A stretch of 32,000 nt of DNA from Cupriavidus necator (GTDB lineage: Bacteria > Pseudomonadota > Gammaproteobacteria > Burkholderiales > Burkholderiaceae): assembly GCF_016127575.1 (NCBI RefSeq), contig NZ_CP066018.1, forward strand, positions 3,360,001 to 3,392,000, written 5' to 3'. Position numbers and translations under genes: made by a program. The notes under the pieces are model-generated. The model ran no database searches. It worked only from the letters and a program-made list of their open reading frames with translations, and had not been told where the DNA came from. Shown here one piece after another: positions 1 through 26,666 of the stretch. Position 1 is the stretch's first letter, and each line of letters starts with the position of its first letter.

Positions 1-138
1 CGAGGGCGCATTGCCGCGGGCGGCGCCTTCGCCTGACCGGAATGCCATCCGGCCGGCCGCTCGCCAAGCCGGTGTTGCCTGAACGTGGGCCGCACCCGCC
101 GGCCGCACCATCGGCCGGGCCCATGACGAGGAGCGCCA

Positions 139-7158: not shown

Positions 7159-9873
7159 CTACAGCTTGCACCGCCGGCTCCACCATTTGTCCAGCTCCAC
7201 TGCAATCGTCAATGTGAGCGCGAGCGACAACAGTCCAGCCCACGTCGTAGCCGACACAGGTGTGAGACCGAGCGTGTCGCTTAGCCCGGGTATGTACATG
7301 GCAGCGATATGGAGTAACTGGGCAGCCAGTACGCTGACCACCAGCATCGGATTGGCGAAGACCCCCTGTCGGAATACGGAGTGGCGCTCTGAACGGCTAC
7401 TAAACGTCTGCAAGTTCTCAAACAGCACAAACAGCAGCAGCAATTGGTTGCGTGCCTCGTTTAGGGGATAGCCGCGGTCGAGCAGCCAGTAGAAAGTTGC
7501 AAATCCCCCTACGCCCATGACAAGAGTCGAATAGCAGATGCGGCGGATCATTACGCGGTCAAAGATCGGCTCCCGGGGCTTGCGCGCCGGATATGACAGT
7601 TCGTCGCCTTCCGCATGCTCGGTAGCCAGAGCCACATCCTGGATGCCATTGGTCACGAGGTTGAGCCACAGCAGCTGCACCGGCAGCAATGGCATTGGCA
7701 GGCCCAGGGGAATCGCCAGCAGAAACAGAACCATTTCGGCCGCGCCCGTGGAAACCACCATGAAGATGACTTTGCGAATGTTCGCGTACGCCACCCTGCC
7801 TTCATTTATGCCGTTGACGATGGACGCAAAGTTGTCATCGGTGAGGACTATGTCTGCGCTTTCCTTCGCTACTTCAGTTCCCTTTCGGCCCATGGCCACA
7901 CCGACGTGTGCGTGCTTGAGCGCAGGAGCGTCGTTGACGCCGTCGCCGGTGACCGCCACGAAATGGCCGGTTCTTGCCAGCGACAGGACAATGGACAGCT
8001 TCTGATCCGGACTGACGCGGGCGTAGATGCGCGCACGGCGGGTCAGTTGGTCGAGTCCGTGCGGCCCCTTGCTCTCGGCCTGGCGCACCTGCTCGCCCGT
8101 CACGACCTGGTCCGTGGTAAAGCGCAGCCCCGCCTGCGCGCCAATTGCGCTGGCTGTCAACGGATCGTCGCCAGTCACCATCGCCACGTCGATGCCGGCG
8201 CTGTAGCAGCGTCGGATAGCGTCCGGGACCTCCGGGCGAACCGGATCCTTCATGCCTGCCATTCCCAGAAAGGTCAGGTTGACCAGGTGCCCGTGTCCGT
8301 AGGACCCGTCCGGCTCCGCATCAATCGTGCCTTCTGCGAACGCCAGCACGCGTAGTCCTTGCGCGGCCAGCGCTGCCTTTTCCCGAAGCAGTCCTTCGCG
8401 CCGGATCGGCACGGCATGGCCGCGAACGTCCGCCTGGTCGCACATGGCAATCAGAGTCTCGGGCGCTCCCTTGACGAACACGCGGATCGTCTCTTCGTGC
8501 CGGTGGAACGAGGCCGCGTACCGCAGGTCTGGCTCATACGGGATACGGGCCACCAAGGGGTACCGCTGTCGGATCTCATTGGCTACGGTGCCCCCCTTGT
8601 GCGCTGCGGCCAGCAGCGCCACGTCCACGCTGTCCCCGGTGCCAGTCCAGCCATCACGCTCCCTGGATAGTTGGGCCTCGTTTGGCAGCGCCGCGGCCCT
8701 TAGCAGGGCCGCTACCCGCGTTCTCGCGTCATGGTCGGTGGTGCCGGCGGCGCGGATCGTGCAGTTGTCCAGATCGTGTCCGACGTCGCAGCAAAACGCC
8801 GTGCCGTCGGGAAGCCGGATATCGGTGACGACAAGCTCGTTCATGGTCAGGGTGCCGGTCTTGTCGGTGGCGATCATCGTGCAGGATCCAAGCGACTCCA
8901 CGGCGGGCATTTTGCGCACGATCACATGGGCCTTCGCCATCCGCCGCATGCTGATCGCCAGCGCCACCGAAATGGCGACGGGCAGTCCTTCGGGGATCGC
9001 GCTTACCGCCAGTCCGACCGACATCATGAACAGTTCGCGCAATGCCATGCCGCGCAGCATACCCACCAACACCAGCAACGCCACAGCCACGCCTACCGCC
9101 ACCGCGATCAGTCGGGAAAAACGCTGGAGCCTGAGAATCAAAGGTGGCTGCGAGATGGATTCGCGGCCCAGTTCCCGCGCAATCCGGCCAATTTGCGTGG
9201 CAGCGCCAGTTGCCACGACGATGCCGTGGCCCCTGCCGCGGAGCACCACCGTGCCGGCGAAGGTCAGGCACTGGCGGGCGCTCGCTGGGGCGTTGCTGGC
9301 ATCACATGCTGAGAGCTTGCGCACCGGCAGCGATTCGCCAGTCAGCAGGGATTCATCGCACTGCAGGTCAATGGCGGAGGTCAGTTCCAGGTCGGCCGGC
9401 ACTCGGTTGCCGGCTTCCAGCACCACCAGGTCGCCCGGTACCAGCGTACTTGCATCGATCTCCTGCTGGATGCCGTCCCGGATCACCGTGGCACGGGGCT
9501 GCTCCATCCTGCGCAGCGCCACGGCCGCCTTGTCGGCCGTATGCTCCTGTGCGGTGCCGATGACGCCGTTAATCAGCAGTACTGCCCCGATGAACAGTGC
9601 ATCCTTCAGGTCACCCAACGCGAGCGACACCGCTGCCGCGGCCAGGAGAATGTAAATAAGCGGACTGAGGAACTGGCGCAGAAACACCGCGGCCACCGAC
9701 CTAGGGGCCGCCTGAGGCAGCACATTGCGGCCCACCTCGGCCAGCCGCGCATTAGCCTGCGCGGTGGTCAGGCCGGGTGGGACATGTCCCGGATCGACGC
9801 GATCCCGGGTGCCGGAATGTTCTTCGTGAGATCGGGGGCGATCCGTTTGCAACGCGCTGGAGCGATTTTGCAT
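7159..9873 (-). CDS. P2-type cation-transporting P-type ATPase (Ca2+/Mg2+-ATPase-like)
   Basis: Motifs DKTGTLT, PEGLP, MVTGD and TGDGVNDAPAL are present. There is an N-terminal Cation_ATPase_N-like segment (GLTTAQANARLAEVGRNVLPQ) and 10 TM-type hydrophobic blocks. ATG 9873 is preferred over ATG 9987 because the longer form would start inside the promoter/FNR-box region. Confidence 0.92.
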   Translation of the reverse strand: MQNRSSALQTDRPRSHEEHSGTRDRVDPGHVPPGLTTAQANARLAEVGRNVLPQAAPRSVAAVFLRQFLSPLIYILLAAAAVSLALGDLKDALFIGAVLLINGVIGTAQEHTADKAAVALRRMEQPRATVIRDGIQQEIDASTLVPGDLVVLEAGNRVPADLELTSAIDLQCDESLLTGESLPVRKLSACDASNAPASARQCLTFAGTVVLRGRGHGIVVATGAATQIGRIARELGRESISQPPLILRLQRFSRLIAVAVGVAVALLVLVGMLRGMALRELFMMSVGLAVSAIPEGLPVAISVALAISMRRMAKAHVIVRKMPAVESLGSCTMIATDKTGTLTMNELVVTDIRLPDGTAFCCDVGHDLDNCTIRAAGTTDHDARTRVAALLRAAALPNEAQLSRERDGWTGTGDSVDVALLAAAHKGGTVANEIRQRYPLVARIPYEPDLRYAASFHRHEETIRVFVKGAPETLIAMCDQADVRGHAVPIRREGLLREKAALAAQGLRVLAFAEGTIDAEPDGSYGHGHLVNLTFLGMAGMKDPVRPEVPDAIRRCYSAGIDVAMVTGDDPLTASAIGAQAGLRFTTDQVVTGEQVRQAESKGPHGLDQLTRRARIYARVSPDQKLSIVLSLARTGHFVAVTGDGVNDAPALKHAHVGVAMGRKGTEVAKESADIVLTDDNFASIVNGINEGRVAYANIRKVIFMVVSTGAAEMVLFLLAIPLGLPMPLLPVQLLWLNLVTNGIQDVALATEHAEGDELSYPARKPREPIFDRVMIRRICYSTLVMGVGGFATFYWLLDRGYPLNEARNQLLLLFVLFENLQTFSSRSERHSVFRQGVFANPMLVVSVLAAQLLHIAAMYIPGLSDTLGLTPVSATTWAGLLSLALTLTIAVELDKWWSRRCKL

Positions 9874-9989
9874 GAGGTTTCCCAAGGTATGCCGGGCGCG
9901 GAGCCACGCGTGCACACCCTGGGCGTACGCCACGTGCGGCGGGCGGGTCCGGACACTGTTCAAGCGTAGGTACTCGCGTTTCCGCATGA

Positions 9990-10003
9990 TTGATCCGGAT
10001 CAA
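9990..10003. promoter_or_regulatory. perfect FNR/Anr box TTGATCCGGATCAA in a divergent promoter region
   Basis: 10/10 match to TTGAT-N4-ATCAA. A -10-like TAGACT (10025-10030) lies on the + side. A TACGCT (complement of 9963-9968) lies on the - side. Both sit about 21-22 nt from the box edge, which is class II geometry. Confidence 0.75.
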
Positions 10004-12743: not shown

Positions 12744-13391
12744 ATGACAAGGGTGATGATTGCGGATGACCATGCTGTGGTACGGGATGGCCTGCGGCAT
12801 ATCCTGGAACGGGCCGGTGTGTTCGAGGTCGTCGGCGAGGCGGCAGATGGTACACAAGTGCCCAGGATGGTACGGGAATGCACCCCGCAGGTGCTCCTGC
12901 TTGACCTTTCCATGCCTGGCAGGAGCGGGCTGGAACTGATCCGCTTGCTGCGCGGCGAGCACCCGGCCCTGCGCATCCTGGTCTTGACCATGCACGCCGA
13001 GGAGCAATACATCGTTCGTGCGTTCCAGGCTGGAGCGGCGGGCTATCTGACCAAGGAAAGCGCGGCTACGGAACTGGTGTCCGCCATCGGCCAGGTAGCC
13101 CGGGGCGGCACCTATGTGAGCCAGTCGATGGCCACGAAGCTGGCAAGCGGGCTGAAGGACCAGAGCGACGACCTGCCGCACCTGAGGCTCTCGGACCGCG
13201 AACTGGAAGTCTACCGGCGGCTGGTGCTGGGCGAGCCCATCACGGCGATCGCCACGGCACTGTGCGTCAGCGCCAAGACCGTGAGCACCTACAAGATGCG
13301 GCTGATGGAAAAAATGCAGATGCCCAATGAAGCCATGCTGTTGCGCTATGCCATGCGCAATCATCTGTTCGACGACGATGCGGACCTGTAG
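12744..13391 (+). CDS. NarL/FixJ (LuxR-type HTH) response regulator, canonical receiver
   Basis: The receiver has ADD (VMIADDH), the phospho-acceptor context VLLLDLSMPG, LVLT and YLTK. The C-terminal HTH is LSDRELEVYRRLVLGEPITAIATALCVSAKTVSTYK. ATG 12744 has AGGGGA upstream. No histidine kinase is in the window. Confidence 0.9.
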   Translation: MTRVMIADDHAVVRDGLRHILERAGVFEVVGEAADGTQVPRMVRECTPQVLLLDLSMPGRSGLELIRLLRGEHPALRILVLTMHAEEQYIVRAFQAGAAGYLTKESAATELVSAIGQVARGGTYVSQSMATKLASGLKDQSDDLPHLRLSDRELEVYRRLVLGEPITAIATALCVSAKTVSTYKMRLMEKMQMPNEAMLLRYAMRNHLFDDDADL

Positions 13392-13430
13392 TGCCACAGT
13401 GCAGCGTCGGTCGGCCGCTGGCTTTGTGCC

Positions 13431-13829
13431 CTATCGCCCCGAAGTCGCAGCCAGCCCGGCCAGGGTCTGGCGCAGCGCATCGAGTTCCAGCGTCTTGTCA
13501 AAGCAGTAGCTCCCGCCTGCCTTCAGGCAGGCGCGGCGCAGCGGCGGGCCGAGGTTGTCGGCCAGCACGATCACGATCGAATCCGGTAGCGTCGACCTCA
13601 GCGTCCTGACCTCCTGGAGCGCATGAGCATAGCCCGTGCCCAGGCTGATCAGGACGACGTCGGGGCGATGACGCAGGAGCGGGGCAAGTTCCGTGGCTGC
13701 GCTGGCGCCCGCACCCGCGACACGGATGCCAGGCATTCGCCCAAGCAGGCCGAGCTGCCTGGTTCGGATCGCATTGGCATGCTCGAGCAAGTACACGGTA
13801 AGCAGGCGGGCAGGATTGCGGTCTGGCAT
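13431..13829 (-). CDS. stand-alone receiver-like protein lacking the phospho-acceptor Asp (aspartate-less receiver)
   Basis: 132 aa with a receiver-like alternating pattern. It has YLLEHA in place of the acidic DD pair and PDVVLISLG in place of the DxxxLD acceptor. IVIVLAD and the conserved Lys context (YCFDK) are retained. Confidence 0.6.
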   Translation of the reverse strand: MPDRNPARLLTVYLLEHANAIRTRQLGLLGRMPGIRVAGAGASAATELAPLLRHRPDVVLISLGTGYAHALQEVRTLRSTLPDSIVIVLADNLGPPLRRACLKAGGSYCFDKTLELDALRQTLAGLAATSGR

Positions 13830-13906
13830 GGTCCTAGTATCGCGGCTCCCCTTGCGGTGGCAAATCAGGGGCGGCTGAGAGTCGCGTCAGGGGGGCAGAA
13901 GGCACT

Positions 13907-13923
13907 GTCAGTGATCCCTGACA
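13907..13923 (-). promoter_or_regulatory. 17-bp palindromic motif GTCAGTGATCCCTGACA upstream of the receiver-like gene
   Basis: 15/17 identical to 19421-19437. An additional GTCAGGG half-site lies at 13886-13892, 21 bp away. The motif sits 84 nt upstream of ATG 13829. Confidence 0.5.
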
Positions 13924-14112
13924 TGCGCGCGCACGCCTTGCCGGCTTGGCAGGAGCGAGTACGACAGTTTCGACAAGCAAGCCGGCTGGGTGGCGTCTGC
14001 AACCGAGGTTGTCGGCTACCGGCTTGTCTCAGGAAAGCGGCCGCCGCCGGCAGTGCGCCTGAAGGCGATCGAAATTGCCAACGCCTTGCGCGCGCGTGCC
14101 GATTGCGATGCC

Positions 14113-19244: not shown

Positions 19245-19314
19245 CATGGTCTCCTGGATGACGGCGCCGTGCGCGCCGTGTTTTCTTACTTTGGCAAGCC
19301 GGGGCGGTTGCGGT

Positions 19315-19328
19315 TTGCTTTGCATCAA
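19315..19328 (-). promoter_or_regulatory. FNR box (reads TTGATGCAAAGCAA on the minus strand) upstream of hsp20
   Basis: 9/10 match to TTGAT-N4-ATCAA, 71 nt upstream of the hsp20 start in the hsp20/fnr divergent intergenic region. Confidence 0.65.
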
Positions 19329-19420: not shown

Positions 19421-19437
19421 GTCAGGGAACCCTGACA
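19421..19437 (+). promoter_or_regulatory. 17-bp palindromic motif GTCAGGGAACCCTGACA between hsp20 and fnr
   Basis: Perfect 7-bp inverted repeat GTCAGGG/CCCTGAC with a 2-nt spacer. An extra CTGACA half-site lies at 19453-19458, 21 bp downstream. It is 15/17 identical to 13907-13923. Confidence 0.5.
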
Positions 19438-19610
19438 AGTGACGCTGCATTTCTGACACGCAACTCAGCGCAGCCTTCTAGGCGCGGAGCGCGGGCAGGC
19501 CAATACTTCAGTCAAACACATCGCGGCGCGCACGAATATGCGGTCCGCCAGACGACACGGGTGAAGGCGAGGGTCGGGATAAGGGAAAGGCCGGCAGGCT
19601 GGAGACAACC

Positions 19611-20405
19611 ATGTTTGACTTGCATACTGAAGCTGATGCTGTTTGTGACGCCCCCAACATGTCCGTCGCGCTCTCCAGGCGTGAGGATGAGACGTTTGCG
19701 GAGCCGGCGCCGGATCCCGCGCGGGCGCGGTGCACAACTTGCATGATGCGGAACATCTGCATGGCCGCCAGCCTGGAGGCCGGCGAAATGGCCCGCCTGG
19801 ACTCCGTCGTGCGGAGCTGGCGTTCGGTCAAGCAGGGCGAACGGCTGTACCGGGCGGGCGACCCGTTCCGCAGCCTCTATGCGGTCCGCGTCGGCTCGTT
19901 CAAGACCGTGGTGGCGCCGGAGCGGGGCAAGGAGACCATCTCCGGCTTCTACATGGCCGGGGACTCAATCGGCATGGACGGCGTTTGCCAGGAAACCCAT
20001 AACTGCGATGCGATTGCCCTGGAAGACAGCGTGGTCTGCGTGATCCCGTTTCACCAGCTCGAGGCGCTATGCCGCGAGATCAAGCCGCTGCAACGCCACC
20101 TGCACAAGATGTTCAGTGCCGAGATCGTGAGGGAATCGCGCCAGATGATGCTGTTAGGCAACAACATGTCCGCCGAGCAGCGCGTGGCGGCATTCCTGTT
20201 GAACGTCTCGGCACGCTACCGCGAACGCGGCTATTCGGCCACGTCCTTTGTGCTGCGCATGACTCGTGAAGACATCGGCAGCTTCCTTGGCATGACCCTG
20301 GAAACCGTGAGCCGGACCTTGTCCAAGTTCCAGCAGGAAGGGCTGCTGACAGTGCAGGGCAAGTCCATCGAGCTGCTCAATCTGGACGCCCTGGACGCTC
20401 GCTAG
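19611..20405 (+). CDS. fnr: FNR/Anr-type oxygen-sensing CRP-family transcription regulator
   Basis: The N-terminal Cys cluster C-X2-C-X5-C ([11 protein letters not shown]) plus the fourth Cys in VVCVIPF matches the E. coli FNR C20/C23/C29/C122 pattern. There is a cNMP-like barrel and a recognition helix [11 protein letters not shown] (E--SR). ATG has GGAGA upstream. Confidence 0.93.
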
Positions 20406-22204: not shown

Positions 22205-22278
22205 CTTCGTTGACAGCCATCAACACGCATGCGCTTGCGACCGCTACTTTGGAAATAGCCCATAGCCGAAGCCGAGGT
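22205..22278 (+). repeat. promoter-plus-leader module, copy A (FNR box, -10, leader, SD-like GAGG)
   Basis: Aligns by eye with 25333-25405. 41/48 are identical from the box through the -10, and 16/18 in the segment ending GCCGAGGT. There is one indel in between. Confidence 0.7.
22210..22223 (+). promoter_or_regulatory. FNR box TTGACAGCCATCAA
   Basis: 9/10 match. A -10-like TACTTT lies at 22245-22250, 21 nt after the box. It is 217 nt upstream of the PNPOx-like gene. Confidence 0.65.
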
Positions 22279-25332: not shown

Positions 25333-25405
25333 CTTGGTTGACTGGCATCAACCCGCATGTCCTTGCGACCGCTAATTTGGGATGAACCACAGCCAAAGCC
25401 GAGGT
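25333..25405 (+). repeat. promoter-plus-leader module, copy B
   Basis: See 22205-22278. In this copy the module ends 4 nt before the USP ATG at 25410. Confidence 0.7.
25338..25351 (+). promoter_or_regulatory. FNR box TTGACTGGCATCAA
   Basis: 9/10 match. A -10-like TAATTT lies at 25373-25378. It is 59 nt upstream of the USP start. Confidence 0.7.
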
Positions 25406-26406: not shown

Positions 26407-26652
26407 GCCTGCCGCTCGGACGTGTCGCCGCGGGCACGACACCGCGCAAGCAAGTTCGCGGCGGTTCAGGGACGATCCCGCGAAAGAGAAGCGACGGAAC
26501 TGGAAGGGGAAGAAGAAGCGCTCAGGCTTCGTTCGGGGACAAGCAGGCGAGCCGCTCGGCGTGGGCAGGCCTGAATCCGCGAGCCGCAACCCCTGCGCGA
26601 AGACTGCCGATGCGCGCGCGACCAGCGGCGGTTGGAGCGCGGTACCGCGGCT

Positions 26653-26666
26653 TTGACACGTATCAA
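26653..26666 (+). promoter_or_regulatory. FNR box TTGACACGTATCAA
   Basis: 9/10 match. A -10-like TACGCT lies at 26688-26693. It is 85 nt upstream of the USP start. Confidence 0.7.

Follow-up and report, generated by a model that had tools for sequence, protein, structure and literature searches.

A promoter module with a conserved palindrome upstream of fnr and an aspartate-less receiver gene, probable operator of an oxygen-sensing two-component system in Cupriavidus, Ralstonia and Pandoraea

The window, by which we mean the whole 32-kb stretch of DNA analysed here (Cupriavidus necator, contig NZ_CP066018.1), had a G+C content of 65%. Its DNA was that of Cupriavidus, being 92% identical to a C. 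necator chromid and 94% identical to a related locus (L008). A gene map was made from Pfam scans of those open reading frames (ORFs) of the window that had a coding-type G+C content at third codon positions (Table 1). It included the genes of a NarL/FixJ-class response regulator, of a single-domain receiver lacking the phospho-acceptor aspartate (the pseudo-receiver) and of a CRP/FNR-family regulator (fnr). A palindrome was present upstream of both fnr and the pseudo-receiver gene. Here we describe the promoter module to which it belongs, the distribution of this module and the regulatory system that probably acts through it.

The inverted-repeat search found GTCAGGGAACCCTGACA at 19421–19437 in the fnr promoter, with perfect 7-nt arms and a 2-nt spacer. 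In the pseudo-receiver promoter, GTCAGTGATCCCTGACA at 13907–13923 was the same at 15 of 17 positions (on the minus strand the 16-mer reads GTCAGGGATCACTGAC, flanked by T at 13906 and A at 13923). Extra half-sites, CTGACA at 19453–19458 and GTCAGGG at 13886–13892, each lie 21 bp from the matching palindrome half, and the order from palindrome to extra half-site is the same at both copies relative to the downstream gene. These sequences are exactly those given in a preliminary description of this DNA. With up to three mismatches allowed, the 16-mer occurred at only two places in the window; the mean for shuffled sequences was 0.18 and none of 100 shuffles reached the observed count. A weight matrix built from 51 independent sites outside the window gave scores of 26.8 bits (19421 copy) and 25.8 bits (13907 copy), while the next-best position in the window had 2.8 bits, below the shuffle median of 4.3. 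A weak related sequence that had been pointed out at 26467–26481 scored −25.8 bits and is not a site. The bare 7-mer half-site alone was not enriched in the window (8 found, 4.65 expected). Family-wide, the conserved core was of the 6-4-6 form, its centre rich in A/T and its flanking T and A conserved as well (TGTCAGG-nWWn-CCTGACA); the 7-2-7 arrangement was specific to the fnr copy of the window (19421). The palindrome did not have the geometry of FNR or CRP operators (TTGAT-N4-ATCAA or TGTGA-N6-TCACA): its sequence is unrelated and its half-sites, compared in equal register, are set 2 bp further apart, so that the earlier statement that it has nothing to do with the FNR box was borne out.

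Both palindromes are the distal elements of a conserved, directional promoter module of approximately 95 bp. Read toward the genes, the fnr and pseudo-receiver upstream regions showed collinear similarity over approximately 90 bp, ending at an ATACT hexamer at equal distance. Alignment of 52 non-redundant module copies (pairwise identity below 90%) from Cupriavidus, Ralstonia, Pandoraea and metagenomes gave the consensus TGTCAGG.a..CCTGACA - 15 nt - C.GAC - 5 nt - TCTCAGC...gcCTgaTTtcg - about 20 nt - C.ATACT - 5–6 nt - cA. The blocks were kept at fixed spacing, and the spacers between them were fully diverged across the three genera. The CTCAGC-N4-CCTGAT block is a degenerate version of the same palindrome: its consensus agrees with the core at 9 of 12 positions, and it is centred 43 bp, or approximately four helical turns, downstream of the first. 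In an alignment of seven Cupriavidus hsp20–fnr intergenic regions (A3), an invariant FNR box near hsp20 was followed by approximately 90 bp of diverged sequence and then by the module blocks; the leader after them was diverged and the ribosome-binding site conserved. The module blocks were invariant amid these diverged flanks, including TCAGC of the proximal palindrome and CCAATACTT at the hexamer; in every copy, [GAC]ATACT was separated from the palindrome by the same distance.

For fnr, a leader of approximately 97 nt is predicted, with the ribosome-binding site GGAGA before the ATG at 19611. The promoter scan found neither a −35 consensus nor a full sigma-70 promoter at the fnr copy. At the pseudo-receiver copy it returned TTGCCA-16-GATACT. 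The pseudo-receiver ATG (13829–13827) begins 7 nt after the hexamer without a Shine-Dalgarno sequence, and in all orthologs the ATG is likewise 6–7 nt past ATACT and without a Shine-Dalgarno sequence. The mRNA is therefore predicted to be leaderless, starting with the A of the ATG (13829), and this start also lends independent support to the assignment of the hexamer as the −10 element. On inspection, neither a sigma-54 promoter nor a strong sigma-70 promoter could be convincingly matched to the palindrome region, and the scan was negative at the fnr copy.

Table 1. Features of the window, of the consensus promoter module and of related loci. Positions refer to the window unless a module or locus is named; those in the module rows and all transcription starts are relative or predicted.
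Feature	Position	Strand	Remarks
guaA, SulP transporter, DoxX	first genes of the window map		Pfam
P-type ATPase	7159–9987	−	Pfam
beta-CASP metallo-beta-lactamase-fold (RNase J-like) protein	beyond the P-type ATPase		perfect FNR box 9990–10003 between the two; Pfam
Universal stress protein (USP)	between the beta-CASP protein and the NarL-type regulator		Pfam
Kinase gene remnant, 45 codons	12632–12769	+	blastn and tblastn against L008, junction alignment A2
NarL/FixJ-class response regulator (receiver domain and GerE helix-turn-helix, HTH)	12744–13391	+	Pfam; presumed binder of the palindrome
Aspartate-less single-domain receiver (pseudo-receiver), 132 aa	13431–13829	−	candidate FixT-like feedback protein
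−10 GATACT, pseudo-receiver copy	13836–13841	−	−35-like TTGCCA 13863–13858
Proximal palindrome CTCAGC-CGCC-CCTGAT, pseudo-receiver copy	13864–13879	−	9/12 core; ~−42.5
Lone half-site CTGAC, pseudo-receiver copy	13886–13890	−	21 bp after the palindrome's proximal half
Distal palindrome, pseudo-receiver promoter, GTCAGTGATCCCTGAC	13907–13922		
Pat-like acyl-CoA synthetase/GNAT	after the pseudo-receiver		Pfam
Two BON proteins, CBS protein, Hsp20	Hsp20 start 19247	−	Pfam
FNR box TTGCTTTGCATCAA	19315–19328		68–81 bp upstream of the hsp20 start (19247, −)
Distal palindrome, fnr promoter, GTCAGGGAACCCTGAC	19421–19436		centre ~85.5 bp upstream of predicted transcription start
Lone half-site CTGAC, fnr copy	19453–19457	+	21 bp after the palindrome's right half; C.GAC at least 80% conserved in 52 copies
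Proximal palindrome CTCAGC-GCAG-CCTTCT, fnr copy	19464–19479	+	7/12 core; ~−42.5; centre 43 bp after distal centre
Predicted −10 AATACT, fnr copy	19502–19507	+	predicted transcription start near 19514
fnr, CRP/FNR-family regulator	19611–20405	+	Pfam; translation
Thymidine-phosphorylase-like protein, PNPOx, TPM, alanine dehydrogenase, further USPs, PhaC, SDR	after fnr		Pfam
FNR-type boxes, 0–1 mismatch	9990–10003, 19315–19328, 22210–22223, 25338–25351, 26653–26666		
Module: distal palindrome TGTCAGG-nWWn-CCTGACA	module positions 1–16		centre ~−85.5
Module: lone half-site CYGAC	module, +21		~−59
Module: proximal degenerate palindrome CTCAGC-N4-CCTGAT	module positions 44–59		centre ~−42.5 (class II activator position), overlaps the missing −35
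Module: −10 hexamer ATACT	module positions 82–87		predicted start at conserved cA ~7 nt later
LRAT-like genes, genome loci	L027 ~13000–13640, L029, L037, L023, L035, L007, L009		
LRAT-like genes, metagenome loci	L092, L098, L101, L102, L104, L106, L107, L112, L121, L122, L126		

With the regulator as query, 80 loci were collected, one genome per species. Forty-three of them held orthologs (67–98% identity; Cupriavidus, Ralstonia and Pandoraea), and 37 held paralogs (43–50% identity) in unrelated gene contexts without hypoxia genes, which served as negative controls. The core GTCAGG-N4-CCTGAC, with at most one mismatch, was present upstream of fnr in 29 of 36 loci, window included. In the other seven, the pseudo-receiver gene and fnr are arranged in tandem with the site upstream of the former, and the module was thereby associated with fnr, directly or via the tandem, in all 36. 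Upstream of the pseudo-receiver gene the core was found in 12 of 12 loci under the same threshold, with 80–86 nt from its centre to the ATG even where the proteins were only 34–38% identical. The 52 module copies preceded only fnr, the aspartate-less receiver gene or a gene for an LRAT-like protein. A module profile searched with nhmmer retrieved full-length copies only in the ortholog loci and in the window (exactly two), and none in the 37 paralog control loci. Variant operators were also sought beside the 43–50% identical paralogs, where neither hypoxia genes nor the motif were seen. In approximately 20 Ralstonia species the palindrome is located in the divergent intergenic region between fnr and the kinase–regulator operon. 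A symmetric module on the kinase side of this palindrome was considered and rejected, as only the palindrome matched in reverse and no consistent second half-site was found.

Metagenomes were scanned starting from the motif itself: among 241 million records, 46 stretches matched the combination of palindrome, lone half-site and CTCAGC. The gene directly downstream was fnr in 25, an LRAT/NlpC-like gene in 11 and the pseudo-receiver gene in three (39 of 46 stretches); four further stretches were cut off beside the kinase gene or hsp20 and three had no recognisable genes nearby. The kinase gene, the regulator gene or both were on the same stretch in 22 of the 46 matches, with both present in 19.

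The third recurrent target encodes an LRAT/NlpC-like protein of approximately 170 aa with the motif LTNNCEHFCxWC ('NCEHF') and is usually divergent from hsp20. It was a target in seven genome loci as well, and a thymidine-phosphorylase-like gene was a target in one. No homolog of the LRAT-like protein was found in the window with tblastn. In two genome loci (L007 4729–4850 and L009 2915–3050), only the promoter-proximal half of the module was present upstream of the LRAT-like gene, and the canonical palindrome was replaced further upstream by CCCTGACA-N6-TGTCA-N2-GTCAGAC, a rearrangement of the same half-sites.

The product of fnr had the pattern C-X2-C-X5-C at residues 41–50 and a central cysteine, and scored 224.6 bits with the NCBIfam Fnr subfamily model (cutoff 228). 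By its sequence it is an FNR of the iron–sulfur (Fe-S) FNR/Anr type, not of the FixK type. The pseudo-receiver matched Pfam Response_reg weakly (E = 0.0017) and its family profile hit the NarL receiver at 1e-9, identifying it as a true receiver fold. The phospho-acceptor aspartate, which had been noted as missing, was indeed replaced in all orthologs by G, A, E or S, with Ser in the window copy, and the conserved Lys/Arg was retained. FixT is a non-phosphorylated single-domain receiver induced by its own pathway; the pseudo-receiver has the receiver fold, lacks the aspartate and shares the promoter module. In C. pinatubonensis (L042, 10993–12607), the pseudo-receiver gene was seemingly interrupted by an insertion of approximately 1.6 kb, with its breakpoint corresponding to window 13738/13740 and the module retained at 12785–12699.

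In the translation of the regulator, the acidic pocket and the Asp, Thr and Lys residues were intact; the acceptor Asp is in LLLDLS and corresponds by homology to Asp-54. It fell below every NCBIfam equivalog cutoff (UvrY, 163 bits vs 280; NarL, 122.8 vs 250; FixJ NF006900, 80 vs 255) and scored higher on the UvrY, MctR and NarL models than on the FixJ model. The structure of DevR (3c3w) was matched with E = 2e-23. Among the 30 window ORFs scanned, the regulator and FNR were the only proteins with a recognisable DNA-binding domain. The NarL-type regulator, pointed out in the preliminary description as the only one of its kind in the window, was the sole such regulator among the scanned ORFs, and its binding to the palindrome is to be read as putative.

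In 35 of the 43 ortholog loci, the regulator gene was adjoined by a kinase gene of approximately 450 codons, which ends in ATGA overlapping the regulator start codon. The L008 kinase consists of PAS, HisKA_3 (PF07730) and HATPase domains. Its PAS domain matched two FixL heme-PAS structures (8js5, E = 1.5e-17; 1dp6, E = 8e-17) as well as DosP, and the proximal His and Arg residues were aligned with those of FixL. It was not a FixL equivalog, scoring 69 bits against a cutoff of 850 with the NCBIfam FixL model, in the PAS region only. The kinase gene was intact in L008, L001, L003, L041 and L042. Compared with L008, exactly 1227 bp (409 codons) were missing from the window, in frame, at the junction 12672/12673. 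The deletion takes out the PAS, HisKA_3 and ATPase domains, and the remnant ORF overlaps the regulator start. At the junction there was no restriction site or obvious scar, only an ambiguous short similarity (GTCC/AGCC), and the deletion was for this reason read as natural; it is recent. The designation of the regulator as kinase-less in the preliminary description is accordingly right for the window but not as an inherent property, since 35 of 43 relatives have an intact kinase gene in translational coupling with that of the regulator. Five Pandoraea loci (L010, L011, L013, L015 and L019) carried regulator orthologs of 72–80% identity with no adjacent kinase; four of the five had no fnr or module within 10 kb and look like orphan regulators. 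In L001, L004, L006 and L009, two overlapping tblastn matches to the PAS region of the kinase gene suggested a duplicated PAS domain.

On the comparative evidence, the palindrome very likely functions as a specific regulatory operator in a promoter module of the activator type, and it is common to the fnr and aspartate-less-receiver promoters, as had been surmised. Dimer sites of the 6-4-6 and 7-2-7 geometry are typical of GerE-type HTH regulators such as NarL and DosR. Because of this geometry and the genomic association of the palindrome with the kinase/regulator locus, the adjacent NarL/FixJ-class regulator is probably its binder. We consider it likely, to a similar degree, that the palindrome is the operator of an oxygen-sensing two-component system that activates fnr and a FixT-like pseudo-receiver gene, as a variant of the FixLJ-FixK-FixT or DosRST systems. 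A regulatory tier above FNR, from the regulator to fnr and on to the FNR regulon, was already suggested in the preliminary description and is the best reading of a palindrome so tightly linked to the regulator locus.

Several observations should be set against this interpretation. The link between regulator and operator is one that we infer from genomic association, and the genome loci were chosen with the regulator as query; only the metagenome scan was unbiased, and many of its stretches were short. In four Pandoraea loci the regulator is present while fnr and the module are both missing from its surroundings, and eight of the 43 ortholog loci, like the window, lack the kinase gene. The proximal site is weak in the window fnr copy (7 of 12 core positions), and the transcription starts are predicted positions. 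Beyond the receiver fold, the pseudo-receiver had no detectable sequence relationship with FixT, and a FixT-like role would be one by analogy only. Activation as opposed to repression is, like the starts and this role, a prediction.

Some of these observations would also be expected if the module were a real regulated promoter but its palindrome were the site of some other transcription factor, unlinked to the locus, with the NarL-type regulator acting elsewhere. This is unlikely, although binding by the regulator is itself deduced, the four Pandoraea loci carry the regulator without the module, and the window genome keeps both modules with its kinase gone. Approximately half of the module-bearing metagenome stretches show no kinase or regulator, but these are mostly short or carry the LRAT copy, which in complete loci lies approximately 3.5 kb from the regulator. 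The Ralstonia arrangement, with the palindrome between fnr and the kinase–regulator operon, argues for a linked binder, as does the scarcity of other recognisable DNA-binding proteins in the window. Of the two that were recognised, FNR does not suit the half-site spacing GTCA-N8-TGAC, since the sites of CRP/FNR dimers have N6 in that register. It is less likely still that the palindrome serves as a repressor operator, to which the unphosphorylated regulator, for instance, might bind. The proximal site overlaps the −35 region and could block the polymerase, and a study of Rhodopseudomonas palustris reported binding and repression of nif promoters by FixJ in its unphosphorylated form (PMC13327599). 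Against this, the best-conserved site, with the highest predicted affinity, is at approximately −85, an activator-type position; the promoters are without a −35 consensus, as activator-dependent promoters are; and the targets, fnr and a feedback receiver, match positively controlled genes of FixLJ systems (PMC7078487).

Two near-identical palindromes in the intergenic DNA of a GC-rich genome might also be taken for a dispersed mobile or repetitive extragenic palindromic (REP)-like repeat, or for chance or duplicated sequence without a regulatory role, and the extended similarity of approximately 90 bp could reflect duplication. We regard this as very improbable. There were two copies in 32 kb, and in approximately 0.85 Mb of related loci all palindrome copies were within the module upstream of the same three genes. 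The preliminary description had named REP-like dispersal as the finding that would speak against an operator. The motif was searched for in loci and metagenomes, and every copy in 1.5 Mb of loci and the 46 metagenome stretches, or nearly every one by the more cautious count, was in one gene context. Conserved blocks with fully diverged spacers across three genera point to selection, not recent duplication. Least probable of all is an RNA hairpin serving as terminator, attenuator or processing site: a 6-bp stem can form, but it folds no better than shuffled sequences (z about −1), has no T-run, terminator call or Rfam match at the site, and is located upstream of the predicted transcription starts. 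Moreover, its arms are invariant in sequence instead of co-varying, and its centre is constrained to A/T.

If the palindrome is the operator of the oxygen-sensing system, the heme-PAS/HisKA_3 kinase would phosphorylate the regulator at low oxygen. A regulator dimer would then bind the distal palindrome and help a second dimer to fill the weak proximal site in the class II position. The bound regulator would recruit RNA polymerase for transcription of fnr, of the leaderless pseudo-receiver mRNA and, in relatives, of the LRAT-like gene. FNR, itself an Fe-S oxygen sensor, would drive the hypoxia island (Hsp20, USPs, BON, CBS, P-type ATPase and others) via TTGAT-N4-ATCAA boxes. The pseudo-receiver could plausibly feed back on the kinase as FixT does, a role to which we give somewhat less than an even chance. 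In the window genome, the top tier appears orphaned because the kinase gene was lost by the in-frame deletion, and the regulator may rely on cross-talk or acetyl phosphate, or be inactive.

The FixLJ-FixK(+FixT) cascade is known in the alpha-proteobacteria Sinorhizobium meliloti, Bradyrhizobium japonicum and Caulobacter crescentus (PMC4999443, PMC7078487), and in the Burkholderia cepacia complex the action of FixLJ on fixK was shown functionally, without a defined operator (PMC5234846). The system proposed here shares with FixLJ-FixK a heme-PAS sensor kinase (in relatives; the domain is deleted in the window) and a GerE-type HTH regulator. The main conserved target is in both a CRP/FNR-family regulator with a low-oxygen regulon under TTGAT-N4-ATCAA-type boxes. 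As with FixT, a single-domain, non-phosphorylatable receiver is found on the promoter module of the same pathway and, as in the fixK promoter (−69 to −31), regulator sites (here predicted) are located upstream of and overlapping the −35 region. The transmitter differs from that of FixL, being HisKA_3 (NarX/DosS class) and not HisKA (PF00512), and the regulator belongs to another clade than FixJ, below the FixJ equivalog cutoff. TGTCAGG-N4-CCTGACA also differs from the FixJ operators (TAAGTAATTTCCCTTA, GTAGTTTCCC, GTAMGTAG) in overall motif and symmetry, although one half-site of the S. meliloti FixJ site on fixK (TTTCCCTTA), namely TAAGGGAA on the other strand, resembles TCAGGGAA (PMC4999443). 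Unlike the oxygen-blind FixK, the downstream FNR keeps its Fe-S cysteines and would constitute a second oxygen sensor. In S. meliloti, fixT is under FixK control; the pseudo-receiver gene, in contrast, is on the regulator-type promoter itself, with its predicted leaderless mRNA.

Similarities to DosS/DosT-DosR of Mycobacterium tuberculosis comprise a heme sensor kinase with HisKA_3, a NarL-class regulator and a palindromic operator. The sensor differs in being PAS-heme and not GAF-heme, and the Dos box, TTSGGGACTWWAGTCCCSAA, differs from the palindrome in sequence and spacing. The island genes at 7159–28722 (Hsp20/alpha-crystallin, several USPs, a CBS protein, a P-type ATPase and a PNPOx-like protein) parallel the DosR dormancy regulon of M. 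tuberculosis. Unlike DosR, the regulator here appears to have only a few direct targets and to leave the island to FNR. The combination of a strong distal and a weak proximal site overlapping −35 is like that of the DosR-dependent hspX/acr promoters, where the sites are bound cooperatively. The cooperativity of DevR is the subject of PMC3029386.

The operator is also similar to the NarL/NarP 7-2-7 sites, in which inverted heptamers or hexamers are bound by a GerE-HTH dimer. Its half-site GTCAGG(G), however, differs from TACYYMT, and the regulator is neither a NarL ortholog nor another named equivalog. The BvgA-type fha promoter has a distal high-affinity inverted repeat near −85 to −88 and weaker cooperative sites down to the −35 region. 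The module is like such promoters in having a distal inverted repeat and weaker downstream sites toward −35.

A similar gene set, the lxa locus, is needed for the anoxic persistence of Burkholderia cenocepacia. It holds CRP/FNR-type regulators beside two-component systems, and the only published motif is the FNR/Anr-like TGA-N6-TCA upstream of many of its genes (PMC3721108). Similar as the gene content is, there was no Burkholderia locus among the 43 orthologs and the palindrome is not described there. In the literature on the lxa locus, the FixJ box, Cupriavidus and Ralstonia hypoxia systems and the motif, no description of the palindrome or of the two-component system was found; the coverage of this search was incomplete and novelty is unproven.

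As a tentative proposal, Cupriavidus, Ralstonia and Pandoraea may possess an undescribed oxygen cascade, in which a FixL-type heme-PAS domain is joined to a DosS-type HisKA_3 transmitter and a NarL-class regulator with its own operator (TGTCAGG-N4-CCTGACA) directly switches on an Fe-S FNR, placing two oxygen sensors in series. The same regulator would switch on a leaderless aspartate-less anti-kinase receiver, an independent analogue of FixT, and the cascade would gate a dormancy-like hypoxia island. If so, kinase-deletion variants such as the window genome show the top tier dismantled while the operators persist, and the loss of the kinase in this genome and several relatives is a natural experiment. 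The analysis defines an operator, a promoter architecture and a small putative direct regulon (fnr, pseudo-receiver gene, LRAT-like gene) for an uncharacterised oxygen-sensing two-component system of these Burkholderiales. It would place a heme-based sensor above the Fe-S-based FNR, over a hypoxia-survival island like lxa and the DosR regulon, and would add to FixT a second and apparently independent case of a receiver that cannot be phosphorylated and is wired to feed back on an oxygen sensor kinase. It involves no new regulatory principle, the circuit logic being already known from FixLJ, FixK and FixT.

FNR-type boxes were enriched in the window, with 12 matches at up to two mismatches where 4.9 were expected. 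They front several island genes, namely the ATPase/beta-CASP divergent pair and the hsp20, PNPOx and USP genes, and their distribution fits an lxa-like FNR regulon. The box at 19315–19328 is likely the control element of hsp20, apart from the palindrome. The preliminary description had also placed hsp20 under the control of the palindrome, which was not supported: the module points to fnr, hsp20 is served by an invariant FNR box of its own, and approximately 90 bp of diverged sequence separate the two. That hsp20 is often the divergent neighbour of the module is due to synteny. A GC-rich hairpin with a T-run at 19261–19279, terminator-like on the plus strand, falls within the predicted leader of hsp20 and lies shortly upstream of the start of this minus-strand gene. 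Between the promoter of the pseudo-receiver gene and the 3' end of the Pat-like gene, the window has 93 bp (13998–14090) in place of approximately 1.4 kb in L008 (11248–12686) and L001. The L008 segment seems to code for two small proteins, whose N-termini resemble signal peptides and which gave no Pfam match.

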